Source: Candidatus Babeliales bacterium
GTDB taxonomy: Bacteria > Babelota > Babeliae > Babelales > JBFXEV01
Length of the DNA stretch: 64,000 bases
Assembly (NCBI GenBank): GCA_963716425.1
Contig: OY970310.1
Coordinates: 1,110,769-1,174,768 of the forward strand
Reading direction: 5' to 3'
Positions within the stretch are counted from its first letter, which is position 1. Every line of letters begins with the position of its first letter. The notes below the pieces were generated by a model, which worked only from the letters and a program-made list of their open reading frames with translations, was not told where the DNA came from and made no database searches. Shown piece by piece: positions 34,618 to 54,070 of this stretch. Position numbers and translations under genes: made by a program.

Positions 34618-34622
34618 TTTTT

Positions 34623-35273: not shown

Positions 35274-35321
35274 TAACAGTTAACAACAGTTTTTCTTGAG
35301 CAAAAAGATAAAGGTAAAAAT

Positions 35322-36769: not shown

Positions 36770-36772
36770 AAT

Positions 36773-38212: not shown

Positions 38213-38253
38213 ATGAGGAGCACATACGAGTGATGTAAAAATAGGAGCTTAAA

Positions 38254-40314
38254 ATGAATAAGAGCATTGTTCTTAATGTATTGTTTGCATGCCTTATGTT
38301 TCCAATTTGTGCGATGAATGATGACTCTTGGGATTGGCGCGATGAACCATGTGCTCATGACGATTCATCACATGAAGGAGGTGAGGAGTCATCAGATGAC
38401 AGCAATGTGGCACTCAACGCAACTCGATATGTGCTTGGTGAACTCCTGCGTAGTAGTGAGCGGCATCGCTTTCAGCAAAAGCAGTTACAGCAAGCTGCAG
38501 TGCAACCGTTTACAGAGGATGAAGTTAATTCATTAAAACAATGGCCAGCGCCAGAAGATTTTGCAGAAAGAGAACCGTGGCCATTAGATGAGTTGCTCCG
38601 ACAGCCTGTTGTACAACGGCTAAAAGCTTCATCACAAGATGTTAAAAATCTTGCACTCAAAAGAGTTAAGCATTTAACAAAACCTGGCCAGCGATATATG
38701 GCAGCCTGCGCTCTTTCTGCTGGAGCAGATCCTGAATTGCCATGTGGCCAATCGGTTTCATTCCTTTCTCATGCTGTTCATCAAAGAATGCCTAGATTTG
38801 TGCAAATTCTTGTGCCATTAAAACCAAATCCAAACCGTGTGCAGGCAATAGTGCATAATTCTTCTGGTCTACATATTGATATCCCTCTTTTTTTTCAGGC
38901 AGCCGATACTAAGATGAGCGGATTGCTCAATGCATTAGGAGCTGATTATAGCTTAAGAGGAGGGTATGATAACGGTACGGTGTTGCATTATATGTGTAGA
39001 GTTAATGTAGCCAGCGGGCCTGCAGTGCCGTTACTTAAATATTATTTAGAGCATGGGGCTGATCCTCGTGCAGTTGATGATAAGGGTCGCACGCCTTTAC
39101 ATGTAGTGGGAAGAAACTTAAGTCAGTGTAACTTGGATCTTTCATTATCGTATGCACTGATGTTACTTAAATATGGTACGCCGCCACATGCCAAAGACGT
39201 TGATGGTAAGATGTTCTTGGAGTATGTTGATCAACTTAGGTATAAGCCTGAACGTGGGCATTTGAATAATCGCGTTTTATATGCATGTATGGAACAGTAT
39301 TTAAAAAGGCATACGCTACCGCGACATTCCCCAGATGACGTTGCTCCTGAACAGACTCTCTTGTGTGCATGCTTAAAGTCATCGCATGCAAAAAAGGAAG
39401 AAGTTGAGCTTCCGTTCATTTCACAAGAATATACGCAAGCACATTCGCCACTTTTACCAGAGCCGTGTGCTATGTTAGATTGTAATGCATTGCGCAAACA
39501 ACCAAAATATCCTTTTTGGCAGCGCATCATTGCTATTAAGGATGTTTCCAAAGAAATTGATATAAGTGTCATGAAAATGGTAGATGCAGAAGTGGCACCT
39601 GTCTATTTGGATTGGAATAAAGCTAGAACCCTTGCATCAATGGCAATTGCCGCAGATAATAAGTATTTCCACAACAATTTTAAGGATCTTTATATTGGTG
39701 ATTTGGCATTGACTGAGGATGATGTGCCGTTTATGCGCTTTATGCTTCAACACGACGTACATAGAGTAGAAGGGTATTTTGTGGTGAGATCAGTTGCAAT
39801 GGCCTTACTCCTCAAAAATTATTATCCTATTACAGAATTAGACACTTTGAGTTGTAATCAGCTCCACTGCACGGCAGAATGGGGCGCTATTGTGGATGAT
39901 GATCTTCCAGATTTTTATCGAGCAAATGGAGTTGATCCTCTTTTAGAAAATAAAGAGGGTACAACGCCACTTCACTTGCTTGCAGCTCATAGTTACCGAT
40001 ATATCCGAAGTGAAAGAAAGCTCATTAAGCTTGCTCGCATGTTCCTTCTTGCAGGGGCAGATGTTACCAAAAAGCATCCACGATTAGGTCAGTCTGCGCT
40101 TGAAATTGCCCAATCTGTACATGAGTTATGGGGTGCTACAGCCACTGCATCTCTTGTGAAATTATTAACTGTTGCTGCATCCGAACCTCAATATGCACTC
40201 AAAATGTACGCCATAGAAAAAGAAGCAGGGCTCATGCTTGCAGAATTGGATGCTCAAAAGTTAGCGCGTACAAAAAGGCAGACTTTTGTGAAAATGAATA
40301 GTAATGGTGCATAA
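38254..40314 (+). CDS. secreted ankyrin-like protein, long paralog of 28378..30012
   Basis: 686 aa. Leader MNKSIVLNVLFACLMFPICAMN. Shares the blocks GADYSLRGGYDNGTVLHYMCR, GRTPLHVVG, LPEPCAMLDCNALRKQPKYPFWQRIIAI, FLLAGADV and LVKLLTVAASEPQ. Confidence 0.75.
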   Translation: MNKSIVLNVLFACLMFPICAMNDDSWDWRDEPCAHDDSSHEGGEESSDDSNVALNATRYVLGELLRSSERHRFQQKQLQQAAVQPFTEDEVNSLKQWPAPEDFAEREPWPLDELLRQPVVQRLKASSQDVKNLALKRVKHLTKPGQRYMAACALSAGADPELPCGQSVSFLSHAVHQRMPRFVQILVPLKPNPNRVQAIVHNSSGLHIDIPLFFQAADTKMSGLLNALGADYSLRGGYDNGTVLHYMCRVNVASGPAVPLLKYYLEHGADPRAVDDKGRTPLHVVGRNLSQCNLDLSLSYALMLLKYGTPPHAKDVDGKMFLEYVDQLRYKPERGHLNNRVLYACMEQYLKRHTLPRHSPDDVAPEQTLLCACLKSSHAKKEEVELPFISQEYTQAHSPLLPEPCAMLDCNALRKQPKYPFWQRIIAIKDVSKEIDISVMKMVDAEVAPVYLDWNKARTLASMAIAADNKYFHNNFKDLYIGDLALTEDDVPFMRFMLQHDVHRVEGYFVVRSVAMALLLKNYYPITELDTLSCNQLHCTAEWGAIVDDDLPDFYRANGVDPLLENKEGTTPLHLLAAHSYRYIRSERKLIKLARMFLLAGADVTKKHPRLGQSALEIAQSVHELWGATATASLVKLLTVAASEPQYALKMYAIEKEAGLMLAELDAQKLARTKRQTFVKMNSNGA

Positions 40315-40396
40315 TAAGCTTTAGTTGCTAAAAACGGCAATTTGAACTATCCTATTTGTATTATATCATCTTTTTATACTACAAAATAGGTATTGC

Positions 40397-41605
40397 ATGT
40401 TTTTTCATCAGCATTCAGTTTCTACAATGTTATTCTTTTTTGTCAGCACTTCTGTGCATGCCATGCAGAGACCACCTGGGGATGCTTATCAGGGATATCT
40501 TACAGCTATTGCAGAGAACAATATTCCAGCGGTAGAAGTATCCTTAAGGCATAACCCTGATTTTGTTGATCAATTTGATCGTTATTCGCAAGATACTGCC
40601 GTGCATGCAGCGGTGAAGGCAAAGGGTGATACTACGCAACTTATCACATTATTGCTGCAAGCAGCAGCTCCTTACAAGCCTTGTAAGAACTCCTTTGCCT
40701 CATCAGTACATGCAGCAGCTAAACTTAATAACGTTACAGCACTGGCATTGTTACAAGACGCTGGTGGTGACCTTAATGTTCAAAATGCTTTGGGAGAATC
40801 ACCATGCTATGGGGCTATGGAATCTGATGCTCTGGAAGCGGTTGCTTGGTTGCATACAGCGGGTGCCAACGTGAATAGTACTGATCTGTATGGTGGAGCA
40901 CTAGTGCATTGGGCAGTTATTAAGGGAGAATTAAAAAAGCTTAATCATGTGTTGGCTCATGGTGGCCGGCTTGATGTTCAAACTGAGACCCCAGCATTGC
41001 CACCTAGTGTAATACGAACTAATCTTCCACATGAAATTGGTTTAACTCCTTTCCATGTGGCTGCTTATAATCTTGGTCCAAACACGCAAGATGCTAAGAA
41101 ATTATTATTATATCATGGGTTATGGCATGGTCATCTTAGCCCGGTAACGCATCAAGAACTTTTTACCTTATTGTGTTGTTTGAATAGACTTTGCCCAGCA
41201 TTGTATGCGAATCGCTTTAATCTGTTATTGCCTTATGTAGTGCAACAAGTTACAGCTCAGGGGCTTGTGAAGTTGCTCAGTTCTCCCAAAGAGAGTGGGC
41301 GTGCTTTTGGACAAAAACTGCTACGGCCGCGTGCAATGAATGTGCAGCGTATCTTGTTGATGCAAAGTAATACAGGAAATACTGCACATATGATAGAATG
41401 TCAGCAAAGGGTGCAGGATACTAAAGCACCTGAACCAATGCTTCTGCCTTGCAAAATTGGCAATGACTATAAGCAATTTATCGATGCAGCCAAAACTGGC
41501 ACTCTTACAAAAGTTCCTCTAACTAATGTTTTTAAAGCAGCACTCGACGTAACTGAATCACCATCATGGTCTTCATGGGAATGGGGAAAATGTGTTATTT
41601 GCTAA
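40397..41605 (+). CDS. secreted ankyrin-repeat protein with LLCCLNRL-type C-terminal region
   Basis: 402 aa. Leader ..MLFFFVSTSVHAMQ. ANK motifs LLQDAGGDLNVQNALGESP and AWLHTAGANVNSTDLYGGALVHWAV. FTLLCCLNRLCPALYANRFNLLLPY. Confidence 0.8.
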   Translation: MFFHQHSVSTMLFFFVSTSVHAMQRPPGDAYQGYLTAIAENNIPAVEVSLRHNPDFVDQFDRYSQDTAVHAAVKAKGDTTQLITLLLQAAAPYKPCKNSFASSVHAAAKLNNVTALALLQDAGGDLNVQNALGESPCYGAMESDALEAVAWLHTAGANVNSTDLYGGALVHWAVIKGELKKLNHVLAHGGRLDVQTETPALPPSVIRTNLPHEIGLTPFHVAAYNLGPNTQDAKKLLLYHGLWHGHLSPVTHQELFTLLCCLNRLCPALYANRFNLLLPYVVQQVTAQGLVKLLSSPKESGRAFGQKLLRPRAMNVQRILLMQSNTGNTAHMIECQQRVQDTKAPEPMLLPCKIGNDYKQFIDAAKTGTLTKVPLTNVFKAALDVTESPSWSSWEWGKCVIC

Positions 41606-41633
41606 GCTTTAGAATCAGATTGCACCAACTATT

Positions 41634-42701
41634 TTAAAGAGGGATATCGCTTGCCGCCGTTGCAGTCGCTTTGGTACCTTTCTGTTGCATGACCATGTTG
41701 ATTTGTTGAGTCCAAGTCGGGTGATATTGCGTGAGCTTTTTGCTATCGAATTTATCTTGATCTTCTGCGGCTCGGTGGATATTGTTTGGGTATGTTATGC
41801 TGCCAAAATCTGTGTGTGAGCATACTATCGCTGCGCATTTTTCTTGTTCTTCAAGTATTGGGCCTTTAATGCAATATAAGCAAAGAAGTTTGCAAACATC
41901 TCGTGGCAGCAGAGGATTAACTCTTTTACAACAGAGTAATATCGTTTTACAGAAATTATTTAAACTCAAATGTTTTCGTATGCGAGGTAGAGGAATATAG
42001 GTGACTAATATTTGTGCCATATCGGTATAACCTAACTTAATAGCTTTCTGGCAAATGGATTCAGGGTGAAGCTGGATCACGTGCATGGGACCCGGGTCAT
42101 TTGATTCATACGATTCCAATCTATTGGGATCGGCTCCTGCATCAAGGAGCATGCGCACTGCGGTATGATTGCGGCTATGGAGCGCGATGCTTAAAAGAAA
42201 GTCAGCCCTGTTTATGTTATTTGGAATAGTGACTATATTTTGATTGGGATCTGCCCCTTGGGCAAGAAACTTGCTTACTGTAGTATTATCTTGTGTTTTA
42301 ATTGCTTGGGCAAGGGGTATATAGATACACCACATCACGAGCCTAGAGGTATGGTCAAAGGGTGGTGCGCCTTGTTTATTCTTAATATTAATGCGAGCAC
42401 CAGCTTCCAAAAGGCATATGATTTTTTGTCGGTTTTCCATTTCTTCTTGGCTTTCTGCAAATTCTTGATCGCCTAGTTTTTGGCCAAATGCAAGATGCAA
42501 TGGCGTATCACCGTTATTATTTTGTGCGTTTACATCAGCCTTTGCTTCTATCAGTTTTTGAATCACTGTATCATTGCCAGCATCTTGGCTTATTACGGCA
42601 AGATGCAGTGGCATATTGCCTTTTACATTGGTGGCTGCATCCATACAGAATATTGGAGTGTTGAACAATAAGATAATTAGGTATAAAAGATAAGTAACCA
42701 T
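41634..42701 (-). CDS. secreted ankyrin-repeat protein with C-terminal F-box-like region
   Basis: 355 aa. Leader MVTYLLYLIILLFNTPIFCMD. GNMPLHLAV, LIEAKADVNAQNNNGDTPLHLA. ILLCCKRVNPLLPRDVCKLLCLYCI...YHPTWTQQI. Confidence 0.85.
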   Translation of the reverse strand: MVTYLLYLIILLFNTPIFCMDAATNVKGNMPLHLAVISQDAGNDTVIQKLIEAKADVNAQNNNGDTPLHLAFGQKLGDQEFAESQEEMENRQKIICLLEAGARINIKNKQGAPPFDHTSRLVMWCIYIPLAQAIKTQDNTTVSKFLAQGADPNQNIVTIPNNINRADFLLSIALHSRNHTAVRMLLDAGADPNRLESYESNDPGPMHVIQLHPESICQKAIKLGYTDMAQILVTYIPLPRIRKHLSLNNFCKTILLCCKRVNPLLPRDVCKLLCLYCIKGPILEEQEKCAAIVCSHTDFGSITYPNNIHRAAEDQDKFDSKKLTQYHPTWTQQINMVMQQKGTKATATAASDIPL

Positions 42702-43039
42702 TGCGTATCCCCCTTGGGTATTGGTTAGGGGTTATGCTATCCAACATTGAGTATAAAAGTATTTATTTGGGGGAAGCAAGGGTTTTATAGCATTTTACAC
42801 ATCTATAGAATTTCTGCGTGATCAATCGCATGAGATGCAAAAACTTGATCAAGCATTTTAAGCGTAACTTGCTGATCGTCTAAGCGTGTTCCAATTGGAC
42901 ACGCTAATTTTTAGAGCTGCAACGCTGTGTTATATTAAGCTTGTAAGAGTTATGAAAAGCGCTACACTTGTTCTGATCAATTTAGTCAATCTTTTATTTT
43001 ATATGGTAGAGTGATTGTAAACATAAAAGAGTTATAGCT

Positions 43040-44809
43040 ATGGCATTGAACAAAACTTCTATTATCCTTTCTTTTGTAGCATTTCTTACTATTTTTTTTG
43101 CGCAAGCAGGATTTGTTAAAGGTACAGTAGTCAAAACATCATCAGGATTTGTTCCTATAGAGGAACTTAATATTGGCGATGAAGTGTACTGTTTTGATAT
43201 GCATAATGATGAATTTTTACTGCGGACCATAACAGATGTATCAAGGCATGAAGTTTCGTATCTTTTGTATATTCAAACGAATGGTACTCACATAATTGTC
43301 GATGCCCAGCAACCTTTTTATTTACCGGTGGAAGAAGCGTGGTGTTATGCTGAAGATCTTCAACCCAGTATGGTGCTCTTAAGTTGTGATCAGCAACGCA
43401 TTATGGTACAGAATGTTAATGAAGTGTGCATTAATGCGCTGGTCTATGATATTACCGTTGATGAACTACATAATTTTTGTGTAACAACTGATGGCATAGT
43501 CGTTCATAATTTTTTTTGGGTAGCAATCCCATTAACTCTATCTCTTTCAAAAATTGCATATTCACTTGGAGTTGCTCTAGTAGCATATACCTGTTATGAT
43601 TTTGTACAAAAAAATACTGGAGCATCAAATGATCTTAATATAGATCTTTCTAATGCTCATTTCTCTGGTTTGATTGATCCATATAGTTCTCAAAAAAATC
43701 AACGATATGGTCATGATGGCTATGTGCATTTAGGCAATGAAAGCAGTCATAGTAATGCTGTCTTTGCATCTAATCAATCGCAAGAATCAATTAGTTCAGT
43801 GCCTACTTATGCTGCTAGAAAATTACCACAATCTCCTAGTGTGCATGATACTAGGTCATATGCTGTACCGAAGATTGAATCTGAGAAAATACTTGGTTGT
43901 GGCACTGGATTATTGCCTGCTTCTCCAGAGTTTGATCAGAATAAGCCTTCTTGTATTCAAGGAATTGATAATAATGGTGGCCGGACTTGTAACCCCGGCT
44001 TATTAATACCAGTTCCAAAAACTAATCTTGGTGAGCTTTGTGAAGTATCAGGTAGCAAAGATGATGATGCCGATACTAAGCTGCCAACGTGTGGTATTGG
44101 TTTGCAGCCAATACCTGAATCCAGAACTTTATGTAGTTGGAGTAACAATTCAACAAAACTAACTGTTTATCCTGAAAAAAAAATTGGTGGAAATCAGGAG
44201 AGTGATGCTGAAACTGATGAGGAAGAAGCCTATAAGAAATATGATAGTGAAAAGATTGATGTTGATGTTGGAACAGATCAGCAAGAGCCAGATCATCAAG
44301 ATAAAGAAGAAAATAATGTCCCATTAAAAGAAGAAATTAAAATCTCTTTGGAAGAGACTGTGAGAGCAATTAAAGAATTAGTTGATCAAAATCCTGAAAA
44401 AATTTGGTCAAAAATTACGCCTACTCAAGAATTCCATAATTCACATTCTTTAATACCTAAGTCATTTGTAATTAATGTAGAGGGACAATTAATTTGGGTA
44501 AATCCCAGTGGATCAAAACATCTTATGGAAGAAACCAGTCCCCCTCTTTCCGCGAGTAAAAGAAAAGATGCTAAACCCCTTAGGCAGGAAATTGATCCTT
44601 TGATATCTCCTTGGGATATTCCTGCAAAAGAATATAAATTTTCTCATGAGTTATTGCTTAATGATTTTTATGAAGATTTGCAAGCGGCTATAAAACCTGG
44701 CGTCAAATATGGGGAATTAATAATTATTAATTCATGGGAATTTAAATTTGATTATCCAAGCATTGAAAATGGTCATCCAATTCTTTTTCATGCTTTAAAG
44801 GTGAAATAA
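43040..44809 (+). CDS. signal peptide + Hint (intein-like) domain + TM + low-complexity linker + unknown C-terminal domain; polymorphic-toxin-like protein (type alpha tip)
   Basis: 589 aa. Leader MALNKTSIILSFVAFLTIFFAQA. Hint blocks GFVKGTVVKTSSGFVPIEELNIGDEV ... VYDITVDELHNFCVTTDGIVVHN. TM FFWVAIPLTLSLSKIAYSLGVALVAY. Ser/Gln/Asp-rich linker. C-terminal NPEKIWSKITPTQEFHN...SPWDIPAKEYKFSHELLLNDFY...NGHPILFHA. Confidence 0.8.
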   Translation: MALNKTSIILSFVAFLTIFFAQAGFVKGTVVKTSSGFVPIEELNIGDEVYCFDMHNDEFLLRTITDVSRHEVSYLLYIQTNGTHIIVDAQQPFYLPVEEAWCYAEDLQPSMVLLSCDQQRIMVQNVNEVCINALVYDITVDELHNFCVTTDGIVVHNFFWVAIPLTLSLSKIAYSLGVALVAYTCYDFVQKNTGASNDLNIDLSNAHFSGLIDPYSSQKNQRYGHDGYVHLGNESSHSNAVFASNQSQESISSVPTYAARKLPQSPSVHDTRSYAVPKIESEKILGCGTGLLPASPEFDQNKPSCIQGIDNNGGRTCNPGLLIPVPKTNLGELCEVSGSKDDDADTKLPTCGIGLQPIPESRTLCSWSNNSTKLTVYPEKKIGGNQESDAETDEEEAYKKYDSEKIDVDVGTDQQEPDHQDKEENNVPLKEEIKISLEETVRAIKELVDQNPEKIWSKITPTQEFHNSHSLIPKSFVINVEGQLIWVNPSGSKHLMEETSPPLSASKRKDAKPLRQEIDPLISPWDIPAKEYKFSHELLLNDFYEDLQAAIKPGVKYGELIIINSWEFKFDYPSIENGHPILFHALKVK

Positions 44810-44811
44810 TT

Positions 44812-45360
44812 GTGAATATTATGTATTTTCAATATACCATTATTAACGTTGTGAGTATAGAAAAGTTAATTGATGAGCATATACCCATGGATATACAGTT
44901 TGAATATAGTGAATATTCAAATATCCATAATCGCATTGAATATAGAACTGAAAATTATTACATGTTTTTTAAAATAGGAGACCTATTTGGAGAATTAGTT
45001 GGTATTACCCTTTTATGTAATAAAAATTATAATTTCATCAATGATAATATTTCACTTGATCAATTACCCTATAATAACAGTATTGTTGCACTTAAAATTA
45101 AGAATATTAATCAATTCGCAAAAAGACCGTATCTTGATAATGGCGTTAATTATACTATTTCAGAATCATGTAAAGTTGATGTTTATAAGGATGCTTTGAA
45201 AATATCAATGCCAAATGCACCAGAGCCTGTTTTTTGTATAATGAACAACGATTTCGGTGTTCTTACAGATATTGAATTTAATATTTGTTCATTTGTGTTG
45301 AAGGGTATTACCTTAGTTGAGCATGCTTACTTACAAGATCATGCAAAACGATCTACTTAA
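44812..45360 (+). CDS. small ORF 1 downstream of Hint gene (candidate immunity/partner protein, type alpha)
   Basis: 182 aa. GTG start 3 nt after the upstream stop. No signal peptide and no known motif. The N-terminal half differs between units and the C-terminal half is conserved. Confidence 0.6.
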   Translation: MNIMYFQYTIINVVSIEKLIDEHIPMDIQFEYSEYSNIHNRIEYRTENYYMFFKIGDLFGELVGITLLCNKNYNFINDNISLDQLPYNNSIVALKIKNINQFAKRPYLDNGVNYTISESCKVDVYKDALKISMPNAPEPVFCIMNNDFGVLTDIEFNICSFVLKGITLVEHAYLQDHAKRST

Positions 45361-45724
45361 AAAGAAAGCTATGTTAGAACATAACAATAAAATCATACAA
45401 AAAATTATTGAATTAAAAAAAACAGATATTCTAGAATTGCTGCGGTACGGACTAGAACATGAATTCATTGATGGTGAATTTTGCTCAAGTGTTGTAATAG
45501 AGCTTTTGAGTAAAAATATTATCACAGATAATCCGTATGCCTTAGATATCGCTAGTTTAATTCGTACTAAATATGAAAATCAATATGAAAAAACTCAATT
45601 ACTAATCGTAGAAGCAACAAAGAAGACTGATGTTACCTATAATGAGAGAAAGCAACTTTACAATAAAATATGGTTTTATATATTTCAGCTTAATGATCTT
45701 TTAACATCAGGATTTATAGAGTGA
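45323..45724 (+). CDS. small ORF 2 (second candidate partner protein); start 45323 or 45341
   Basis: About 128-134 aa. Overlaps the end of ORF 1 in another frame. Nearly identical in unit 2. No known motif. Confidence 0.55.
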   Translation: MLTYKIMQNDLLKKKAMLEHNNKIIQKIIELKKTDILELLRYGLEHEFIDGEFCSSVVIELLSKNIITDNPYALDIASLIRTKYENQYEKTQLLIVEATKKTDVTYNERKQLYNKIWFYIFQLNDLLTSGFIE

Positions 45725-45742: not shown

Positions 45743-45898
45743 TTACTAGATCTGTAGGGGAAATCCATGCTCCCGCAGATAGCACATGATTTTTTCTCCA
45801 ATGTGTGGCATACAGCCTTCTACATTGGTGGCTGTATCCATGCAGAATATGGAAGAGCTGAATTGTAGGGTGATCAAGTAAAAGAGGTGAGTAATCAT
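45743..45898 (-). pseudogene. 5' remnant of an ankyrin gene (paralog of 41634..42701)
   Basis: Minus-strand translation MITHLFYLITLQFSSSIFCMDTATNVEGCMPH..LQI*, compared with intact MVTYLLYLIILLFNTPIFCMDAATNVKGNMPLH. It stops after 51 codons. The upstream region also matches 42702-42790. Confidence 0.7.
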
Positions 45899-46158
45899 TG
45901 CGTATCCCCCATGGATATTGGTTAGGGGTTTTGCTATCTAGTACTGAGTATAAAAGTATTTATTTTTGGACAAGCAAGGGTTTAATTGCAATTAGGCGAA
46001 AGTGTTTAATTGCGCTAGGACACGCTTAATTTTTAGACTGCTGCAGCACTGTGATATATCACGCTTGTAAGAGTTATGAAAAGCGCTACACTTGTTCTGA
46101 TCAATTTGGTCAATCTTGTATATGGTAGAGTGATTGTAAACATAAAAGAGTTACAACT

Positions 46159-47886
46159 ATGGCATTGAACAAAACTTCTATCCTCCTTTCCTTTGTAGCA
46201 TTTCTTACCATTTTTTTTGCGCAAGCAGGTTTTGTTAAAGGTACCGTAGTTAAAACAGCATCAGGATTTGTTCCTATAGATGAACTTAATATTGGCGATG
46301 AAGTGTACTGTTTTGATATGCATAGTGATGAACTTTTACTGCGGACCATAACAGATGTATCAAGGCATGAAGTTTCGTATCTTCTGTATATTCAAACGAA
46401 TGGTACTCACATAATTGTCGATGCCCAGCAACCTTTTTATTTACCGGTGGAAGAAGCGTGGTGTTATGCTGAAGATCTTCAACTCAGTATGGTGCTCTTA
46501 AGTTGTGATCAGCAACGCATTCTGGTACAGAATGTTAATGAAGTGTGCATTAATGCGCTGGTCTATGATATTACCGTTGATGAACTACATAATTTTTGTG
46601 TAACAATTGATGGCATAGTCGTTCATAATTTTTTTTGGGTAGCAATCCCATTAACTCTTTCTCTTTCAAAAATTGCATACTCACTTGGAGTTGCTGTAGT
46701 AGCATATGCGTGTTATGATTTTGTACAAAAAAATACTGGAGCATCAAATGATCTTAATATAGATCTTTCTAATGCTGATTTCTCTGGCTTCATTGATCCA
46801 TGTAGTTCTCAAAAAAATCAACAATATGGTCGTGATGACTATGCGTATTTAGGCAATGAAAGCAGTCATGGTAATGTTGTATTTGTATCTAATCAATCGC
46901 AAGAATCAATTAGTTCAGTGCCTACATATGCTACTAGAAAATTACCACAATCTCCTAGTGTGCATGATACTAGGTCATTTGCTGTACCGAAGATTGAATC
47001 TGAGAAGATACTTGGTTGTGGGACTGGATTATTGCCTGCTTCTGGAGAGTTTGATCAGAATAAGCCTTCTTGTATTCAAGGAATTGATAATAATGGTGGC
47101 CGGACGTGTGACACTGTCTTATTAATACTAGCTCCAGAAACTAATCTTGGTAAGCTTTGTGAAGTATCGGGTAGCAAAGATGATGATAGAGATAGTAAGC
47201 TGCCAACTTGTGGTATTGGTTTGCAGCCTATACCTGAACCCAGAACTTCTTGTAGTTGGAGTAACAATTCAACAAAACTAACTATTTATCCTGAAAAAAA
47301 AATTGGTGGAAATCAAGAGAGTGATGCTGAAACTGATAAAGAAGAAGCCGATAAGAAATATGATAGTGAAAAGATAGATATTGGTGTTGAAAGAGATCAG
47401 CACGAGCTAGGTCATCAAGATAAAGAAGAAATTAAAGTCTCTTTGGAAGAGACTGTGAGAATAATTAAAGAATTAGCTGAACAAAATCCTGAAAAAATTT
47501 GGTCAAAAATTACTCCAACTCAAGAATTTCATAATCCTCATTCGCTTATACCGCAATCATTTACAATTGAAGTAGATGGTCAAATTTTGTGGATGCATCC
47601 AAATGCTACAAAACATTTGATGGAAAATACAAGTCCCGTCAAAGAGGAAAGAGATAAGATTGATGATTTAAGATCTCCCTGGGATATTCCTTCAAAAGAG
47701 TATAAGTTTTCACATGAATTACTTCTTAACGATTTTTATGCAGCCTTACAGGAAGCGATAAGATCGGGGATAAAATACAAACAACGATTAGTTATTAATT
47801 CATGGCAGTTGGAATTTGGTTATCCTCGAATAGACAACGGTCATCCTATCGTTTTCCATGCTCGAAAGGAAAGAGCGCATGGATAA
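46159..47886 (+). CDS. Hint-domain polymorphic-toxin-like protein, copy 2 (type beta tip)
   Basis: 575 aa. The first approx 160 residues differ from copy 1 at only about 8 positions. The C-terminal approx 110 residues are much more divergent (HPNATKHLMENTSPVKEERDKIDDLRSPWDIPSKEYKFSHELLLNDFYAALQEAIRSGIKYKQRLVINSWQLEFGYPRIDNGHPIVFHA). Confidence 0.8.
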   Translation: MALNKTSILLSFVAFLTIFFAQAGFVKGTVVKTASGFVPIDELNIGDEVYCFDMHSDELLLRTITDVSRHEVSYLLYIQTNGTHIIVDAQQPFYLPVEEAWCYAEDLQLSMVLLSCDQQRILVQNVNEVCINALVYDITVDELHNFCVTIDGIVVHNFFWVAIPLTLSLSKIAYSLGVAVVAYACYDFVQKNTGASNDLNIDLSNADFSGFIDPCSSQKNQQYGRDDYAYLGNESSHGNVVFVSNQSQESISSVPTYATRKLPQSPSVHDTRSFAVPKIESEKILGCGTGLLPASGEFDQNKPSCIQGIDNNGGRTCDTVLLILAPETNLGKLCEVSGSKDDDRDSKLPTCGIGLQPIPEPRTSCSWSNNSTKLTIYPEKKIGGNQESDAETDKEEADKKYDSEKIDIGVERDQHELGHQDKEEIKVSLEETVRIIKELAEQNPEKIWSKITPTQEFHNPHSLIPQSFTIEVDGQILWMHPNATKHLMENTSPVKEERDKIDDLRSPWDIPSKEYKFSHELLLNDFYAALQEAIRSGIKYKQRLVINSWQLEFGYPRIDNGHPIVFHARKERAHG

Positions 47887-48424
47887 TTTATATTTTGAAT
47901 TGAGCACAATTCATATGATAAGTATGAAAAAAACGATAGATAAATATATGCCTTTGAGTATCGAATTTAAATATAATACTTATTCACATACTCATAATTG
48001 GATTGAATACCAAACGCCAAATCATTTTATGGAGTTTAGTATTGGTAATGAGTTTGGTGAGTTAATTAGTTTTACACTCGTACGTCATAAAATGTATAAT
48101 TTCATAAGTGGCAATATTGAGCTTAGCCAATATCCTTTGCATGAAGTGATTACTGGAATAAAAATAAAGAATTATGAAAATGTAAAAAAAGAATTTTACA
48201 ATAATGGATTTTATTATACTATTTCAGAATCATGTATAGTTGATGTCTATAATGATGCTTTGAAAGTATCAATGACAAATGCACCAGAGCCTGTTTTTTG
48301 TATAATGAACAACGATTTCGGTGTTCTTACAGATATTGAACTTAATATTTGTTCATTTGTTTTGAAGGGTATTACCTTAGTTGAGCATGCTTACTTCCAA
48401 GATCATGCAAAACGATCTACTTAA
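47879..48424 (+). CDS. small ORF 1, unit 2 (candidate immunity/partner, type beta)
   Basis: ATG overlaps the upstream stop (gcgcATGGATAA). The N-terminal half is strongly diverged from unit 1. The C-terminal half (APEPVFCIMNNDFGVLTDIE.NICSFVLKGITLVEHAY.QDHAKRST) is nearly identical. Confidence 0.6.
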   Translation: MDNLYFELSTIHMISMKKTIDKYMPLSIEFKYNTYSHTHNWIEYQTPNHFMEFSIGNEFGELISFTLVRHKMYNFISGNIELSQYPLHEVITGIKIKNYENVKKEFYNNGFYYTISESCIVDVYNDALKVSMTNAPEPVFCIMNNDFGVLTDIELNICSFVLKGITLVEHAYFQDHAKRST

Positions 48425-48788
48425 AAAGAAAACTATGTTAGAACATAATAATAAAATCATACAAAAAATTATTGAATTAAAAAAAATAGATATTCTAGAA
48501 TTGCTGCGGTACGGACTAGAACATGAATTCATTGATGGTGAATTTTGCTCAACTGTTGTAATAGAGCTTGTGAGTAAAAATATTATCACAGATAATTCGT
48601 ATGTCTTAGATATCGCTAGTTTAATTCGTACTAAATATGAAAATCAATATGAAAAAGCTCAATCACTAATCGTAGAAGCAACAAAAAAGACTGATGTTAC
48701 CTATAACGAGAGAAAGCAACTTTACAATAAAATATGGTTTTATGTATTTCAGCTTAATGATCTTTTAAAATCAGGATTTATAGTGTGA
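48387..48788 (+). CDS. small ORF 2, unit 2
   Basis: Nearly identical to 45323..45724 (MQNDLLKKK.MLEHNNKIIQKIIELKK.DILELLRYGLEHEFIDGEFCS). Confidence 0.55.
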   Translation: MLTSKIMQNDLLKKKTMLEHNNKIIQKIIELKKIDILELLRYGLEHEFIDGEFCSTVVIELVSKNIITDNSYVLDIASLIRTKYENQYEKAQSLIVEATKKTDVTYNERKQLYNKIWFYVFQLNDLLKSGFIV

Positions 48789-48881: not shown

Positions 48882-49313
48882 CAAAATCCTGAAAAAATTT
48901 GGTCAAAAATTACTCCAACGCAGGAATTTGACAATCCGCATTCTCTTATTCCTAAATCATTCATTATTGATATAGATGTTCAACTTATATGGGTTTGCCC
49001 CAATGCTTCACAGCATCTTATCGGGGAGACAAGCCCATCTGGTTCCGAGAGTAAAAGAAAAGATGCTAAACCACTTAGACAGGAAATTGATTCCTTGATG
49101 TCTCCTTGGGATATTCCTACAAAAGAATATAAATTGTCTCATGAGTTATTGCTTAATGAATTTTATGAAGCAATTCAGAAGGCAATAAAATCAGATATAG
49201 TATATAATGAATTGTTAATTATTAATTCTTGGCAATTAAAATTTGTTTATCCAAGATTTGAAAGTGGGTATCCGGTCCTTTTTCATGATTATAGGGATAA
49301 AAATAGTGAGTAA
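48882..49313 (+). pseudogene. start-less orphan C-terminal cassette of the Hint protein (type alpha tip)
   Basis: The frame opens right after TAA at 48879-48881 with QNPEKIWSKITPTQEFDNPHSLIPKSFIIDIDVQLIWV...SKRKDAKPLRQEIDSLMSPWDIPTKEYKLSHELLLNEFYE...VLFHDYRDKNSE*. There is no ATG before 49098 and no N-terminal part. Confidence 0.7.
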
Positions 49314-49853
49314 GTTATATTTTCAATATGGTATTATAAAACTTAGTAGTGCGGAGAAAACAATTGATGAATATATACCAATGAATATAAAATTTGAATA
49401 TGATATATATTCGGATATTCGCCATAGGATTGAGTATCGCACTGAAAATTATTATATGTTTTTTAAAATAGGGGACCAATTTGGAGAATTAGTTGGTATT
49501 ACTCTTTTATGTAATAAAAATTATAATTTTATCAATGATAATATTTCACTTGATCAATTACCCTATAATAACAGCATTATTGCACTTAAAATTAAGAATA
49601 TTAATCAATTCGTAAAAAGACGTATCTTGATAATGGCGTTAATTATACTATTTCAGAATCATGCATAGTTGATGTCTATAATGATGCCTTGAAAATATCA
49701 ATGCCAAATGCGCCAAAACCTGTTTTCTGTATAATGAACAGCAATTTTGGTGTTCTTACAGATATTGAACTTAATATTTGTTCATTTGTGTTGAAGGGTA
49801 TTACCTTAGTTGAGCATGCTTACTTACAAGATCATGCAAAACGATCTACTTAA
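49306..49853 (+). pseudogene. small ORF 1, unit 3 (type alpha), frameshifted
   Basis: GTG start overlaps the orphan stop as in unit 1. A 1-nt deletion lies near 49614-49626 (aaaaagacgtatc versus aaaaagaccgtatc in unit 1). The downstream frame is otherwise open to 49853. Confidence 0.75.
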
Positions 49854-50210
49854 AAAGAAAACTATGTTAGAACATAATAATAAAATCATTAAAAAAATTA
49901 TTGAATTAAAAAAAATAGATATTCGAGAATTGCTGCGATATGGACTAGAACATGAATTTATTGATGGTGAATTTTGCTCAGCTATCGCACTTGAACTCAT
50001 GAGTAAGAATATCAGCAATGATACTATTGTGGAGCTTGCTAGTTTAATTCGAAATAAATATGAAAATCAATATGAGAAAGCATATGCAATAATGAATGAA
50101 GCAACAAAAAAACTGATGTTACCTATAATGAGAGAACGCAACTTTACAATAAAATATGATTTTATATATTTCAGCTTGATGATCTTTTAAAATCAGGATT
50201 TATAGAGTGA
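49834..50210 (+). pseudogene. small ORF 2, unit 3, frameshift plus nonsense
   Basis: A 1-nt deletion lies near 50105-50112 (gcaacaaaaaaactgatg versus gcaacaaaaaagactgatg). In addition TGG is changed to TGA (aaaatatgatttt versus aaaatatggtttt). Confidence 0.7.
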
Positions 50211-50240
50211 AGCCTTGCAGTACTGCAGTTGCTGGATCTG

Positions 50241-50408
50241 ATGGCAAAAAAACGAAGGCATCCAAAAAATGGAAACATTGGTTGGCCTGATAGGGAAGGA
50301 AATATTTGGGTACCTACGGGACCAAATGATCATGGAGGACGTCATTGGGACGTTCAAGATCGTGATGGAAGGCATAGAAATGTACATCCGAAAAAAAATA
50401 ATAGTTGA
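50241..50408 (+). CDS. 55-codon basic His/Gly/Trp-rich ORF (toxin-tip-like), below the ORF-track cutoff
   Basis: Manual translation: MAKKRRHPKNGNIGWPDREGNIWVPTGPNDHGGRHWDVQDRDGRHRNVHPKKNNS*. It begins exactly where homology to the amplified unit ends (..gctggatctg|ATG). Confidence 0.4.
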   Translation: MAKKRRHPKNGNIGWPDREGNIWVPTGPNDHGGRHWDVQDRDGRHRNVHPKKNNS

Positions 50409-50413
50409 TTATT

Positions 50414-50689
50414 ATGGAAAAAGAATTTTACTTGAAATGCAAACGATTATGGTTTTTTTCTCCCACAGATGAAGATATTTTTTTTGAATGGGTAAAAACT
50501 ATTCCAGCTATTTATAAGATAGATGGCGAGCTTGATGAGGAGCATCTTTATGTTCGCAAAGCAACTTTATCCGATAAAGATCTGAAGGAAATTGTCTCCT
50601 TATTTCGTCGCTATAAAATAGATCGAAAGCAACTGAAAGTTTTTCTTACTGATGATAATAAGCATTGGTTGGCAAAATGGCTTACATAA
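50414..50689 (+). CDS. small paralog A of a four-gene tandem family (candidate immunity-type protein)
   Basis: MEKEFYLKCKRLWFFSPTDEDIFFEWVKTIPAIYKIDG...LVSLFRRYKIDRKQLKVFLTDDNKHWLAKWL. Confidence 0.6.
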   Translation: MEKEFYLKCKRLWFFSPTDEDIFFEWVKTIPAIYKIDGELDEEHLYVRKATLSDKDLKEIVSLFRRYKIDRKQLKVFLTDDNKHWLAKWLT

Positions 50690-50970
50690 TTATTGGGAAA
50701 TATATGGTTGATTTAAATTGTAAAAAAGTACTTTTTTATTCACCTATGGATGAAGCTTTTTTTTTTGATTGGATATCAAGAATTCCAGCAGTAATAAAAG
50801 TAGAAAAAATTTCTGATGAAATTCATTTACATGTGAGAAGTATTCGGATTTCTTATGAAAATTTGGATAAATTAGTATCACTATTTCAACGATATAAAAT
50901 AAAAAGAAGGCAATTAGGTGTGTTTTTAAACGATAGAAATAAACATTGGTTGTCAAGATTGATTAAATAA
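50677..50970 (+). CDS. small paralog B (start 50677 or 50704)
   Basis: ..LNCKKVLFYSPMDEAFFFDWISRIPAVIKVE...LVSLFQRYKIKRRQLGVFLNDRNKHWLSRL. Confidence 0.6.
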   Translation: MAYIIIGKYMVDLNCKKVLFYSPMDEAFFFDWISRIPAVIKVEKISDEIHLHVRSIRISYENLDKLVSLFQRYKIKRRQLGVFLNDRNKHWLSRLIK

Positions 50971-51007
50971 TTTTTGAATATGTAAAGTAACATATTGAGA
51001 TTACCAA

Positions 51008-51280
51008 ATGGATATAGCTAGCATGGAAAAAGATATTGTTATAAGTTGTAAACGTGTGCGTTATTATACAGAAATTGATGAAGAATATTTTTTTGAATGG
51101 ATAGATCAAATTCCTTCTATATATAAGATTGATGGTCAACATGATGAACTGTATCTTCATTTAAAAACACATCAAATATCAGATGAAGAATTTAAAAATT
51201 TAGTGGCATTATTTAAGCGTTATAAGATACCTGCTATAAAGCAATTGCGTGTTTTTTCTAATGTTAATAAGTATTTATGA
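51008..51280 (+). CDS. small paralog C
   Basis: ..ISCKRVRYYTEIDEEYFFEWIDQIPSIYKIDG...LVALFKRYKIPAIKQLRVFSNVNKYL. Confidence 0.6.
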   Translation: MDIASMEKDIVISCKRVRYYTEIDEEYFFEWIDQIPSIYKIDGQHDELYLHLKTHQISDEEFKNLVALFKRYKIPAIKQLRVFSNVNKYL

Positions 51281-51576
51281 GCATAAAGGTTAACGATACC
51301 ATGGAAAATAAACAACTTTTTTTTACTGGAAAAAATGTAATATTTTATTCATCAATTGATGAAGCATTTTTTTATAAATGGGTTAAAAATATTTCATGTA
51401 TTGATGGGGTAGAAAATGTTTCTGGAGATTTTATTTTTTATCTGAAGAATCATAATATAAATAGCCAAGATTTAGATAGATTGGTAGGTTTGTTTGCTCG
51501 ATACTTAATTGATACTAAACAATTAAAAATTTTCTTGACTGATCAAAACAAGCCATGGCTTAAATATTGGGTTTAG
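51277..51576 (+). CDS. small paralog D
   Basis: ATGA overlap with paralog C. ..GKNVIFYSSIDEAFFYKWVKNISCIDGVE...LVGLFARYLIDTKQLKIFLTDQNKPWLKYW. Confidence 0.6.
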   Translation: MSIKVNDTMENKQLFFTGKNVIFYSSIDEAFFYKWVKNISCIDGVENVSGDFIFYLKNHNINSQDLDRLVGLFARYLIDTKQLKIFLTDQNKPWLKYWV

Positions 51577-51582
51577 AAGTAC

Positions 51583-51824
51583 ATAGTGGATCAAAACATT
51601 TGATGGAAAATACAAGTCCCGTCAAAGAGGAAAGAGATAATATTGATGAATTAAGATCTCCCTGGGATATTTCTTCAAAAGAGTATAAGTTTTCACATGA
51701 ATTACTTCTTAACGATTTGTATGCAGCCTTACAGGAAGCGATAAAATCGGAGATAAAATACAAACAACGATTAGTTATTAACTCATGGCAGTTAGACTTT
51801 GGCAATCTGCTCTTCACGTGTTGA
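51583..51824 (+). pseudogene. fourth, truncated orphan fragment of the Hint-protein C-terminal domain (mostly type beta)
   Basis: HSGSKHLMENTSPVKEERDNIDELRSPWDISSKEYKFSHELLLNDLYAALQEAIKSEIKYKQRLVINSWQLDFG, then unrelated NLLFTC*. No start and no following small ORFs. Confidence 0.65.
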
Positions 51825-52925: not shown

Positions 52926-52982
52926 CGTTGGTATGTCTTATCTAATGGAAAATACAGTGCTTGGGTTAGTACGCAAATAAAG

Positions 52983-53900: not shown

Positions 53901-54042
53901 ATATTGTATAGAAATAGCTTATAGTATAGAGGGAAATTGTCTACTTTATCGCAGATAGTGTGCTCCAGAAGCAGTTATGGGGGACACTTGTCTGGGGGCG
54001 AATTTTTTACAGGTATGTAAACCTGTGAAAAATCACCACATA

Positions 54043-54070
54043 TTGACTTTTTCTTATATTTATATACAAT
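54043..54070 (+). promoter_or_regulatory. sigma70-like promoter candidate for the 54109-60271 operon
   Basis: TTGACT (54043-54048), a 16-nt AT-rich spacer, then TACAAT (54065-54070), about 40 nt upstream of the ATG. GGAG Shine-Dalgarno at approx 54096. Confidence 0.35.

Follow-up and report, generated by a model that had tools for sequence, protein, structure and literature searches.

A Hint domain with glycine at position 1 in a putative Sec-exported polymorphic toxin of a Babeliales bacterium

The window analysed here, a stretch of 64,000 nucleotides from contig OY970310.1 of a Candidatus Babeliales bacterium, carried on its forward strand two related toxin-like genes, each followed by small ORFs, and a series of orphan cassettes (Table 1). 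The first of these genes (ORF 43040-44809, +) encoded 589 aa and began with MALNKTSIILSFVAFLTIFFAQA, directly followed by GFVKGTVVKT. From N- to C-terminus, its product comprises a putative signal peptide followed by a pretoxin Hint domain, then a hydrophobic helix and a linker, and finally a domain resembling the CdiA-CT(EC869) tRNase; it is likely to be a small Sec-exported polymorphic toxin of this Babeliales (Dependentiae)-type bacterium, which is of the amoeba-parasite kind. The immunity candidates were devoid of signal peptides. In public gene calls immunity candidate 1 begins at 44821 and the second small ORF spans 45371-45724; neither displayed any Pfam, NCBIfam or PDB sequence match, and the linker displayed no Pfam match. 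Ankyrin-repeat genes flanked the toxin locus and secretion-system genes were absent nearby.

Table 1. Features of the toxin locus (positions refer to the window; residues refer to ORF 43040-44809)
Feature	Coordinates	Strand	Remarks
Leader, residues 1-23	43040..43108	+	Lys5, hydrophobic core 8-20, Ala-Gln-Ala; Sec-type signal peptide
PT-HINT / type-A-BIL-like Hint domain, residues 24-157	43109..43510	+	Pfam, TIGR01443, PDB 2lwy, AlphaFold, Foldseek
Predicted scissile junction Asn157-Phe158 (Asn cyclisation)	43508..43513	+	His-Asn conservation in relatives
Hydrophobic segment, residues 158-189, FFWVAIPLTLSLSKIAYSLGVALVAYTCYDFV	43511..43606	+	AlphaFold helix 165-193
Low-complexity linker, residues 190-430	43607..44329	+	Two CG[TI]GL[LQ]P motifs
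C-terminal toxin domain, residues 431-589 and stop codon	44330..44809	+	CdiA-CT(EC869)-like tRNase; opens with conserved junction QNPEKIWSKITPTQE
Immunity candidate 1, 182 aa from GTG	44812..45360	+	Starts 3 nt past toxin stop
Second small cassette ORF, 135 aa	45317..45724	+	Recurs with each cassette (92% and about 76-83% identity)
Toxin copy 2, 575 aa	46159..47886	+	Hint at 46228-46629; Gly24, Asp88, Gln91, His144, His156 and Asn157 unchanged
Immunity candidate 1' (47858-48424) and second ORF' (48381-48788)	47858..48788	+	tblastn, 62% and 92% versus copy 1 genes
Orphan cassette	48882..50207	+	Toxin C-terminal domain without N-terminus, immunity candidate, second ORF
Parts of this cassette: toxin domain; frameshifted immunity candidate; second ORF	48882-49313; 49306-49850; 49810-50207	+	
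Orphan Ntox37 toxin tip	50229..50408	+	Pfam Ntox37, E 1e-9
Four tandem paralogous ORFs, ~95 aa each	50405..51576	+	Candidate Ntox37 immunity proteins
Extra fragment of tRNase-type toxin domain	51567..51824	+	tblastn, 58% identity over 81 aa

The leader was helical over residues 5-18 in the AlphaFold model and, as stated in the initial annotation, terminated in an AxA site, Ala-Gln-Ala, immediately before Gly24. Its n/h/c layout (Lys5, hydrophobic residues 8-20, Ala-Gln-Ala) suggests that signal peptidase would cut just before Gly24. A lipoprotein signal was rejected because Cys was absent after the leader, and prepilin-type processing between Gly and Phe because the hydrophobic stretch precedes Gly-Phe instead of coming after it. 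The idea that a host would N-myristoylate an exposed Gly was rejected as well: the N-myristoylation motif disfavours Phe after Gly and Glu before Gly, and the next residue is Phe here, with Glu preceding Gly in about half of the clade described below.

Residues 24-157 form a genuine Hint domain of PT-HINT type. The Pfam PT-HINT profile matched residues 30-157 over profile positions 1-136 of 137 (E 2e-12), with 48 bits against a curated cut-off of 27.7. In profile searches residues 24-54 further matched Hint_2 and residues 135-157 matched TIGR01443 (intein_Cterm, E 4e-7); the Pfam Hint model (PF01079) found no match in this protein and only weak ones in three of 107 relatives. Among PDB sequences, phmmer aligned residues 25-157 end to end with 2lwy, a bacterial intein-like (BIL) domain of C. 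thermocellum (E 2e-9), the alignment terminating on HN. The Hint core was modelled with high confidence by AlphaFold (core pLDDT 93-98; mean of the model 87.7), and the top Foldseek matches of the Hint model were BIL domains and mini-inteins (6y75, E 1e-13), with a target-normalised TM-score of 0.93 and an rmsd of 1.2 Å for 2lwy. A chance or pseudogene origin of these features was rejected on the basis of E-values, fold and conservation. The blocks had been assigned correctly in the initial annotation, and the region was indeed predicted to fold as Hint.

Gly24 (codon 43109-43111) aligned by phmmer to the Cys of the CF.AGT motif, and Asp88 and Gln91 occupied the Thr and His positions of block B in canonical domains, in agreement with the losses read from the sequence. 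Internal Hint domains in the phmmer alignment displayed Cys1 in 41 of 46 cases, the block B Thr in 35 and the block B His in 42. No substitute nucleophile was encountered in the Hint domain, position 1 being Gly, the F:4 position Asp137 and the +1 position Phe158; class 2 and class 3 intein mechanisms were rejected since Cys was absent at +1 and at F:4. The residues of C-terminal cleavage were complete, namely His144 (HNF motif of block F), His156 and Asn157, the terminal His-Asn being located where it had been reported (Asn157 codon 43508-43510). With these three residues intact and no alternative nucleophile, only C-terminal Asn cyclisation appears possible, as anticipated in the initial annotation. 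The hydrophobic helix expected behind HN was recovered as an uncharged 28-residue run, FFWVAIPLTLSLSKIAYSLGVALVAYTC, and AlphaFold predicted a helix at 165-193; confidence was low for residues 158-171 of the hydrophobic segment. The helix of this protein was moderately hydrophobic (Kyte-Doolittle 19-residue maximum of 1.56, with Lys171 mid-helix), so that stop-transfer and passage would both be possible.

Copies 1 and 2 were 95% identical in the Hint region, 83% in the linker, 66% in the toxin domain and 62% in the downstream immunity candidate, whose divergence thereby parallels that of the toxin domain. The 11 differences among the first 210 residues left all key sites untouched (24, 25, 88, 91, 137, 144 and 156-158), as had been claimed for copy 2; changes in the Hint region, four synonymous and seven non-synonymous, were too few for dN/dS. 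The toxin C-terminus aligned to residues 213-304 of chain 7vmc_B, CdiA-CT from EC869 (phmmer, E 1e-7), and equivalents of the toxicity residues His216 and His281 were invariant in all four toxin-domain copies. The putatively membrane-anchored remainder, from which the Hint module would be detached according to the initial annotation, is a toxin with a CdiA-CT(EC869)-like tRNase domain and immunity-like genes behind it, which had been overlooked. C-terminal cleavage would be no oddity, since PT-HINT domains are by common prediction there to set free whatever follows them.

One further protein, P0002, was 83% identical over its N-terminal part (leader, Hint and helix) and ended in Ntox37; the orphan Ntox37 tip was near-identical to its C-terminus. 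The four tandem ORFs behind this tip displayed 31-49% identity to the two ORFs following another Ntox37 toxin of the same genome, P0009, so that Ntox37-linked small ORFs were kept at two loci. Orphan cassettes of toxin tips and immunity-like genes extended over 48882-50207, 50229-51576 and 51567-51824. Fourteen related loci were found, all via the single pattern GF[LVI]AGTLVK, which makes the taxonomic picture partial; in nine of 11 intact related loci from other genomes a small ORF either overlapped the toxin stop by a few bases or began at a distance of about 5 nt or less from it. The locus displays what Zhang et al. (2012) consider typical of polymorphic toxins: a conserved N-terminal part, exchanged tips and orphan cassettes.

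The family was gathered by an exhaustive search of 1.84 billion proteins, from which the best-scoring 150 clusters were examined. About 120 of these 150 shared a common layout, composed of a leader, a Gly-Phe start, a degraded block B and an invariant His-Asn, after which come a hydrophobic stretch rich in Gly and toxin domains of various kinds. The arrangement, called unusual in the initial annotation, is not rare and defines a large clade, with a minimum of about 120 clusters (50% identity). Leaders considered in 110 relatives had a median of 23 aa, with Lys or Arg in the n-region in 97 cases. For the uncharged run after HN the median was 37 aa, Gly and Ala together making up a fraction of 0.33. 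Toxin domains attached to the same N-terminus were Ntox37 (17), Ntox21 (5), colicin-E3-type Cytotoxic (4) and Ntox33 (1).

Among 107 aligned relatives (mean identity ~30%), Gly24, His156 and Asn157 were invariant and His144 was kept in 99 (93%), which speaks for selection acting on the C-terminal reaction alone. Asp137 of block F reached 55%. The block B Thr position was occupied by Ala, Asp or Ser and its His position by Gln (69) or His (36); the +1 residue was Phe in 63 of the 107 and +3 was Pro in about half. The PT-HINT profile matched 104 of them, and an invariant pair, Trp101/Ala104, was specific to the clade. Hint domains starting at most 70 residues from the N-terminus displayed Gly1 in 119 out of 130 cases. 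In a neighbour-joining tree from which residue 1 was left out, 117 of 121 Gly1 domains formed one clade devoid of any Cys1 domain. By sequence comparison, Gly1 Hint domains are a distinct clade apart from canonical Cys-1 PT-HINT. In five relatives 25-265 residues separate the leader from the Hint domain, which still starts with [E/D]-G-[FLI]; Gly1 thus seems intrinsic to the clade and independent of the signal peptidase site. Glu precedes Gly in about half of the clade, so that leader cleavage probably takes place one residue upstream there. That position 1 is strictly Gly, and not just any small residue, goes beyond what mere loss of function would explain. The literature searches yielded no account of N-terminal Gly1 PT-HINT domains or of polymorphic toxins in Babeliales. 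Within a known family of toxin-releasing domains, the Gly1 clade forms a large branch not described hitherto.

Compared with the PT-HINT (PF07591) or type A BIL domains of CdiA, Rhs and MafB, the domain was alike in profile, fold, His-Asn end and dispensability of a +1 nucleophile, as well as in its location upstream of a polymorphic toxin domain, with a candidate immunity gene next to it and a predicted release function. The predicted role of PT-HINT domains is the autoproteolytic release of the downstream toxin (PMC3113570, PMC3482391), and type A BIL domains with C-terminal His-Asn yield mainly cleavage products (PMC4031507). Canonical PT-HINT domains, however, start with Cys and keep the block B Thr..His, in contrast to Gly24, Asp88 and Gln91 encountered here. 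They are 'sandwiched' in large proteins between pretoxin domains and toxin (PMC3113570), are followed by polar residues and abut the toxin, whereas the present domain would lie at the mature N-terminus without any N-terminal domain, is followed by a hydrophobic segment and is parted from the toxin by a ~240-residue linker. Neisseria MafB is a small Sec-dependent polymorphic toxin comparable to the one proposed here, with an optional Hint domain before the toxin, orphan cassettes and immunity genes (PMC4524018). Its order is signal peptide, DUF1020, optional type A Hint and toxin, with MafI as immunity protein (PMC4524018); its Hint domain is preceded by 260-320 aa of DUF1020 and it needs the MafA lipoprotein, whereas the protein in the window lacks both an N-terminal domain and a Maf-like partner and has its hydrophobic module after the Hint domain. 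Firmicute toxins with two TM segments, HINT and a nuclease were noted by Zhang, Iyer and Aravind (2011), and these too combine membrane-spanning segments and a Hint peptidase in Sec-dependent nuclease toxins; their TM segments precede Hint, however, whereas here Hint comes first and the hydrophobic segment lies past the predicted cut, where it would travel with the toxin.

The CdiA-CT of E. coli EC869 (an EF-Tu/Ts-dependent tRNase of BECR fold, 7vmc) aligned with the last ~100 residues only, and the toxin domain was the sole part homologous between CdiA and this protein. The product of the downstream gene (~180 aa) is similar in size to CdiI EC869 (179 modelled residues), although its sequence resembled no solved chain among PDB sequences. 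The TPS secretion domain and filamentous haemagglutinin repeats of CdiA were absent according to Pfam, no VENN-type junction motif was evident and no CdiB gene was identified nearby. Inteins rely on a nucleophile at position 1 (or a class 2/3 substitute, e.g. Cys at F:4) and Cys, Ser or Thr at +1, and are inserted in a host protein, the two halves of which they ligate; none of this applies to the present Hint domain, which has only a leader upstream. Hedgehog/Hog domains use a Cys1 thioester to release an N-terminal signalling domain and have a sterol-recognition region behind Hint, whereas Cys1 and N-terminal cargo were both lacking here. Engineered C-terminal-cleavage mini-inteins, such as tags of the Ssp DnaB type, carry Ala at position 1 and still perform the C-terminal Asn cut. 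These are laboratory mutants of splicing inteins with Ala; the present domain seems to be a natural counterpart, ancient, clade-wide and based on Gly.

The favoured explanation is that this Hint clade has abandoned the N-terminal reaction (Cys1 replaced by Gly, block B Thr and His lost) while keeping the residues of Asn cyclisation, and there is a reasonable likelihood that the Hint domain of this Sec-exported toxin cuts at Asn157-Phe158 only, freeing a fragment made of helix and toxin. Leader cleavage, self-cleavage, topology, delivery and target are inferred parts of this best explanation and would be connected as follows. The chain would pass the inner membrane unfolded and its leader would be removed at or beside Gly24; Hint would then fold outside the cytoplasm and cut once, between Asn157 and Phe158. 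The released fragment would have the hydrophobic segment as its new N-terminus with the toxin behind it, Hint acting as a removable cap or release device. Once unmasked, the segment would probably aid the toxin in binding or crossing a membrane toward the cytoplasm of the target, where the toxin would cleave tRNA. Several points weigh against this reading. A number of inteins cyclise Asn only slowly when the N-terminal step has not gone before (PMC4031507), so that a Gly1 domain may be slow or need another trigger. Asp137 is conserved in only 55% of the family, Gly1 is stricter than loss of function would require, and ~270 residues lie between the Hint domain and the polymorphic junction (QNPEKIW...), which canonical PT-HINT domains adjoin. 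No outer-membrane secretion partner was identified.

Loss of the nucleophile and of the block B Thr and His could also mean that the Hint domain is catalytically dead and remains as a folded module in a protein acting as one uncleaved chain. Asp137 is poorly conserved, intein Asn cyclisation is often coupled to N-terminal steps and the Trp101/Ala104 pair could mark a binding surface, all of which would fit such a module. An inert domain, however, would be expected to lose its cleavage residues as block B was lost, whereas His156 and Asn157 persisted in 107 out of 107 relatives at such low mean identity, with His144 nearly as stable, and C-terminal cleavage is the only known role of these three residues. 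A dead Hint domain is for these reasons deemed unlikely, and so are the functions it might then assume, e.g. secretion or folding handle, receptor-binding head or solubility partner for the hydrophobic segment. A non-canonical N-terminal reaction, for instance one in which the free alpha-amine of Gly1 (or of Glu-Gly) would attack the C-terminal junction or succinimide, with the signal peptidase cut as chemical trigger or participant, would account for the strict Gly1, which mere nucleophile loss does not predict. The first and last residues of the Hint fold meet at the active site. Ligation by type A BIL domains employs a free amino group as nucleophile (PMC4031507). This non-canonical chemistry nevertheless has no known precedent and would leave out the five clade members with 25-265 residues before Gly1, which have no free amine; it is considered highly improbable.

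Topology raises a separate alternative. A cleaved leader combined with a single stop-transfer helix would keep the toxin in the cytoplasm of the producer, which fits poorly with delivery. The protein could accordingly reside in the producer's inner membrane as a type I protein, with periplasmic Hint, one TM helix and a cytoplasmic toxin bound by the immunity protein; self-cleavage by Hint would then serve shedding or regulation in a membrane-tethered module of toxin and immunity protein (addiction or abortive-type) and not delivery. The leader followed by a single hydrophobic run (28 residues here, 21 in P0009), the immunity candidates without signal peptides, the ankyrin-repeat flanks and the missing secretion-system genes are all compatible with such a module. 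Orphan C-terminal cassettes, diversified tips and poly-immunity arrays are, on the other hand, hallmarks of exported polymorphic toxins, and Ntox21, colicin E3-type and CdiA-CT domains are known as delivered toxins. In most relatives, moreover, the ~37-residue Gly-rich segment would allow a hairpin, which would leave Hint and toxin on the same side of the membrane. Retention in the producer was therefore judged quite unlikely. Single C-terminal cleavage in an exported toxin is thus retained as the preferred reading, and it can be extended to a bolder proposal, tentative and rather doubtful at present, in which the Gly1 clade represents a minimal polymorphic-toxin delivery device that dispenses with a dedicated secretion system in protist-parasitic bacteria (Dependentiae and similar). 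Hint would fold only after Sec export, its first residue being at or next to the mature N-terminus and beside the active site, and signal peptidase would in effect take over the N-terminal cut that ordinary Hint domains make themselves. A single cyclisation of Asn157 would expose the Gly-rich hydrophobic N-terminus, which would insert into the membrane of a target or host cell and bring the toxin to the other side, and the invariant Gly1 would be required for this export-coupled activation.

Chemistry at both ends, either splicing or cholesterol transfer in Hedgehog, is what Hint domains are best known for. The Gly1 clade, as far as its sequences indicate, would be a natural, ancient and widespread Hint group in which only the residues of the C-terminal half-reaction were kept. 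It is a clean system for the control of Asn cyclisation without an N-terminal step and could supply self-removing tags. The clade also explains a set of proteins whose present annotation is 'Hint domain-containing protein' or 'hypothetical protein'. The effectors and competitive weapons of Dependentiae-type bacteria are almost unknown, and the clade points to a compact, Sec-only format of polymorphic toxins, with a still unexplained hydrophobic module, that has expanded in these intracellular bacteria.

The window protein (toxin 1; 589 aa) began with MALNKTSIILSFVAFLTIFFAQA, followed by GFVKGTVVKTSSGFVPIEELNIGDEV, and its residues 30-157 matched the Pfam family PT-HINT across 136 of the 137 profile positions (1-136; E 2e-12; 48 bits, cut-off 27.7). 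A Hint_2 match (Pfam) began at residue 24 and residues 135-157 corresponded to intein_Cterm (NCBIfam). When the PDB was searched with phmmer, the Clostridium thermocellum BIL domain 2lwy aligned end to end with residues 25-157 (E 2e-9), the alignment closing on His-Asn. The AlphaFold model of residues 1-199, computed from a 31-sequence alignment (mean pLDDT 87.7; Hint core 93-98), displayed a leader helix (5-18), an all-beta core (24-156), an ill-defined stretch (158-171) and a helix (165-193). Foldseek ranked BIL domains first among PDB structures (6y75, E 1e-13; 2lwy, target-normalised TM-score 0.93, rmsd 1.2 Å), followed by mini-inteins. The initial annotation had made its reading depend on the Hint block assignment and on the Hint fold; since the blocks had no other placement and the region folded as Hint, both attempts at refutation failed. 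Its positions for Gly24 (Gly1 of the Hint domain) and Asn157 were exact, and copy 2 (toxin 2) was indeed identical at the diagnostic positions, the 11 differences within the first 210 residues all lying elsewhere.

Residues 1-210 were compared by phmmer with 1.84 billion cluster representatives, which yielded 5682 matches at E <= 1e-3 and 651 at E <= 1e-10. The best 150 of the 5682 matches split into a group with N-terminal Hint domains (start within 70 residues of the N-terminus, n=130) and a group with internal ones (n=46), the latter found in large proteins and often as tandem repeats. Position 1 was Gly in 119/130 N-terminal domains, whereas 41/46 internal domains displayed Cys. The block B Thr position was mostly Ala, Ser or Asp in the former and Thr in 35/46 of the latter; the block B His position was Gln (79/130) or His (45/130) as against His in 42/46. 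His-Asn ended nearly all domains of both groups (127/130 and 43/46), followed by Phe in 68/130 N-terminal domains and mostly by Lys or other polar residues in internal ones. Conservation was selective: in an alignment of 107 N-terminal-group sequences, which share ~30 % identity with the window protein across the conserved N-terminal region, no exception occurred at Gly24, His156 or Asn157, and Phe25, Thr29, Ile40, Asp47, Trp101, Ala104 and His144 were conserved in at least 90 %. In a neighbour-joining tree of 170 domains with residue 1 removed, 117 of the 121 Gly1 domains formed a single clade; four N-terminal variants with Ser, Asp or Ile also belonged to it, and none of the Cys1 domains did. 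Trp101 (106/107) and Ala104 (97/107; clade alignment A2, window-protein numbering) formed a near-invariant pair; the C. thermocellum BIL domain has Phe opposite Trp101. This pair may represent a clade-specific functional surface or part of an altered active site.

Leaders of the Gly1 clade resembled Sec signal peptides: their median length was 23 residues, 97/110 had Lys/Arg in the n-region, and the core was strongly hydrophobic. Of the 107 residues preceding Gly1, 46 were Glu, 24 Ala and 12 Gly, and Glu was itself usually preceded by Gly or Ala. This pattern suggests that the leader would be cut either right before Gly1 (after Ala-Gln-Ala in the window protein) or one residue earlier. Five clade members displayed a signal peptide and 25-265 extra residues before an [E/D]-G-[FLI] start; Gly1 is therefore intrinsic to the Hint clade rather than a side effect of where signal peptidase cuts. 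Prepilin-type, lipoprotein and N-myristoylation signals were rejected on motif grounds.

His-Asn was followed in the clade by an uncharged run (median 37 residues, Gly+Ala fraction 0.33), frequently of pattern F-x-P...W-x-F-G-x-G...E-F and in most relatives long enough for a hairpin. The run was shorter (28 residues) in the window protein's own subgroup, and the window-protein helix, which includes Lys171, was only moderately hydrophobic. A Cys-rich motif, CxCGHxCxxGCxCGCxCGCG, possibly metal-binding, occurred ~40-70 residues past the hydrophobic segment in 6/110 clade members (P0024, P0063, P0084, P0085, P0098, P0121), three of them very long (1558-2093 aa). The linker of the window protein displayed the motif CG[TI]GL[LQ]P twice (residues 287-293 and 351-357); it was kept in the closest relatives (P0002, P0003, P0007) and matched no known domain. 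C-terminal polymorphic-toxin domains were detected by Pfam in 27 of the 107 relatives (Ntox37 17, Ntox21 5, colicin-E3-type Cytotoxic 4, Ntox33 1). The Pfam scan gave no match for the window protein's own C-terminus, which aligned with the tRNase domain of E. coli EC869 CdiA-CT (7vmc_B 213-304, E 1e-7). Mutating His216 or His281 lowers EC869 toxicity (PMC9071432); their counterparts, the His of SKHLMEE and that of ILFHAL, were invariant in all four copies of the toxin domain. An AlphaFold model of this domain (four-sequence alignment, pLDDT 44.5) was too poor for use.

Polymorphic-toxin array and surroundings in window coordinates (array mapped by repeat analysis and tblastn)
Feature	Position	Remark
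Ankyrin-repeat flanks	33667-42701, 51792-58931	at least eight ankyrin-repeat genes
WD40 beta-propeller gene	36773-38212	
Ankyrin protein	41634-42701	355 aa
Toxin 1	43040-44809 (+)	
Gly24 codon	43109-43111	
Asn157 codon	43508-43510	
CG[TI]GL[LQ]P motifs	43898-43918, 44090-44110	
QNPEKIWSKITPTQE stretches	44330-44374, 47425-47481, 48882-48926	
Immunity candidate	44812-45360	182 aa; begins 3 nt past toxin 1 stop
Second small ORF	45317-45724	
DNA repeat	45746-45984 (-), 42608-42787	79 % identical
Toxin 2	46159-47886 (+)	
Paralogues of the two small genes	47858-48424, 48381-48788	
Orphan toxin domain	48882-49313	
Frameshifted copies of the two small genes	49306-49850, 49810-50207	
Orphan Ntox37 tip	50229-50408	
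Four tandem ORFs	50405-51576	~95 aa each
Further toxin-domain fragment	51567-51824	

The predicted polymorphic tRNase toxin and its putative immunity genes (see table) were key context absent from the initial annotation. Identity between the two toxins fell from 95 % (leader-Hint-helix) through 83 % (linker) to 66 % (toxin domain), and their immunity candidates were 62 % identical. Such a gradient is the pattern expected of a conserved N-terminus and a putatively co-diverging toxin/immunity pair. Over 44-52 kb, where the immunity candidates and orphan cassettes lie, G+C was 0.29-0.35, as against ~0.40 in the rest of the window, in keeping with horizontal exchange of cassettes. The invariant stretch QNPEKIWSKITPTQE opened every tRNase-type domain copy, orphan included, and by analogy with the VENN motif of CdiA is probably a recombination junction for cassette exchange. 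The duplication from which toxin 2 arose also took in the upstream ankyrin gene at its 5' end, leaving a DNA repeat and a 50-aa remnant ORF (MITHLFYLITLQFSSSIFCMDTATNVEG...) that corresponds to the beginning of the 355-aa ankyrin protein. Several flanking ankyrin proteins displayed signal-peptide-like hydrophobic N-termini; the ankyrin/WD40 surroundings fit the effector-rich genome of a protist-associated intracellular bacterium.

Related loci displayed a similar organisation. P0002, a relative from another assembly, was 83 % identical to the window protein in its N-terminal part and ended in Ntox37. P0009, encoded elsewhere on the same 1.87 Mb contig, was a minimal form of 229 aa (leader, Gly1 Hint, 21 hydrophobic residues, Ntox37), followed by two ~100-aa ORFs with 31-49 % identity to the four tandem ORFs of the array. 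In nine of 11 intact related loci from other genomes, a small ORF started no more than ~5 nt from the toxin stop or shared a few bases with it; at least three such genes were present in one genome of 1.52 Mb. Most named sources were Candidatus Babeliales MAGs; one was 'Candidatus Berkiella', and several were MAGs with loose labels. Contigs JABDBI010000024.1 (L008) and PBME01000006.1 (L004), which belong to MAGs bearing the labels 'Methanobacteriota archaeon' and 'Epsilonproteobacteria bacterium', also carried clade members; as the distribution is otherwise of Babeliales type, the two contigs may be mis-binned rather than come from real hosts.

In inteins and type A BILs, the N-terminal acyl shift is driven by Cys/Ser1 together with the Thr and His of block B, and C-terminal cleavage by Asn cyclisation by the terminal Asn, the His before it and the His of block F. 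As a prediction from sequence, the C-terminal-cleavage-only chemistry of the initial annotation is sound: the sole possible cut would lie between Asn157 and Phe158. Sec substrates are unfolded while they cross the membrane; the Hint domain would hence fold and cut only after export, a simple means against premature cleavage. The products would be a free 134-residue Hint domain and a fragment running from the hydrophobic segment to the tRNase. Membrane binding or translocation toward the target cytoplasm is the favoured role of the unmasked segment, and the immunity protein, devoid of a signal peptide, would act in the target cytoplasm of kin cells. Type A BILs yield mostly cleavage products (PMC4031507), and PT-HINT domains are predicted to release downstream toxins autoproteolytically (PMC3113570, PMC3482391).

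A non-catalytic Hint domain is disfavoured, as the clade, although it freely lost block B, kept His-Asn without exception and conserved the block F His. C-terminal cleavage has its own weak points: the invariance of Gly itself, rather than of any small residue, and the dependence of some inteins on the N-terminal step for faster Asn cyclisation (PMC4031507). A non-canonical N-terminal reaction via the free amine of Gly1 is a rival, against which stand the clade members with internal Gly1. A further weak point is that, if the leader is cleaved and the helix acts as the only stop-transfer segment, the toxin domain would stay in the cytoplasm of the producer. The simplest topology is matched by another rival, a toxin-immunity module tethered to the producer membrane with shedding of the Hint domain, but this does not fit the orphan cassettes or the delivered-toxin families involved.

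The window protein would work like a PT-HINT-bearing polymorphic toxin; it is neither an intein nor a Hedgehog/Hog domain protein, nor is it CdiA, the CdiA-like part being the toxin domain only. It displayed the PT-HINT profile, fold and His-Asn, and lacked two features described for the family: the nucleophile at position 1 together with the block B residues, and the location 'sandwiched' between pretoxin domain and toxin (PMC3113570). The nearest whole-protein analogue is Neisseria MafB, which combines a signal peptide, an optional type A Hint domain and a toxin and also has orphan cassettes; unlike here, a DUF1020 domain precedes its Hint domain (PMC4524018). Firmicute two-TM/HINT/nuclease proteins share the same elements in opposite order. 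No description of the Gly1 N-terminal PT-HINT clade or of polymorphic toxins in Babeliales was found in the open-access literature searched; the arrangement, called unusual in the initial annotation, is so relative to the literature but frequent in metagenomes. The feature is genuine and conserved, and it is not a new kind of system. The clade, from a poorly known bacterial phylum, would represent a natural C-cleavage-only Hint that has an invariant Gly and is followed by a hydrophobic module, and it is open to direct test by simple expression experiments.
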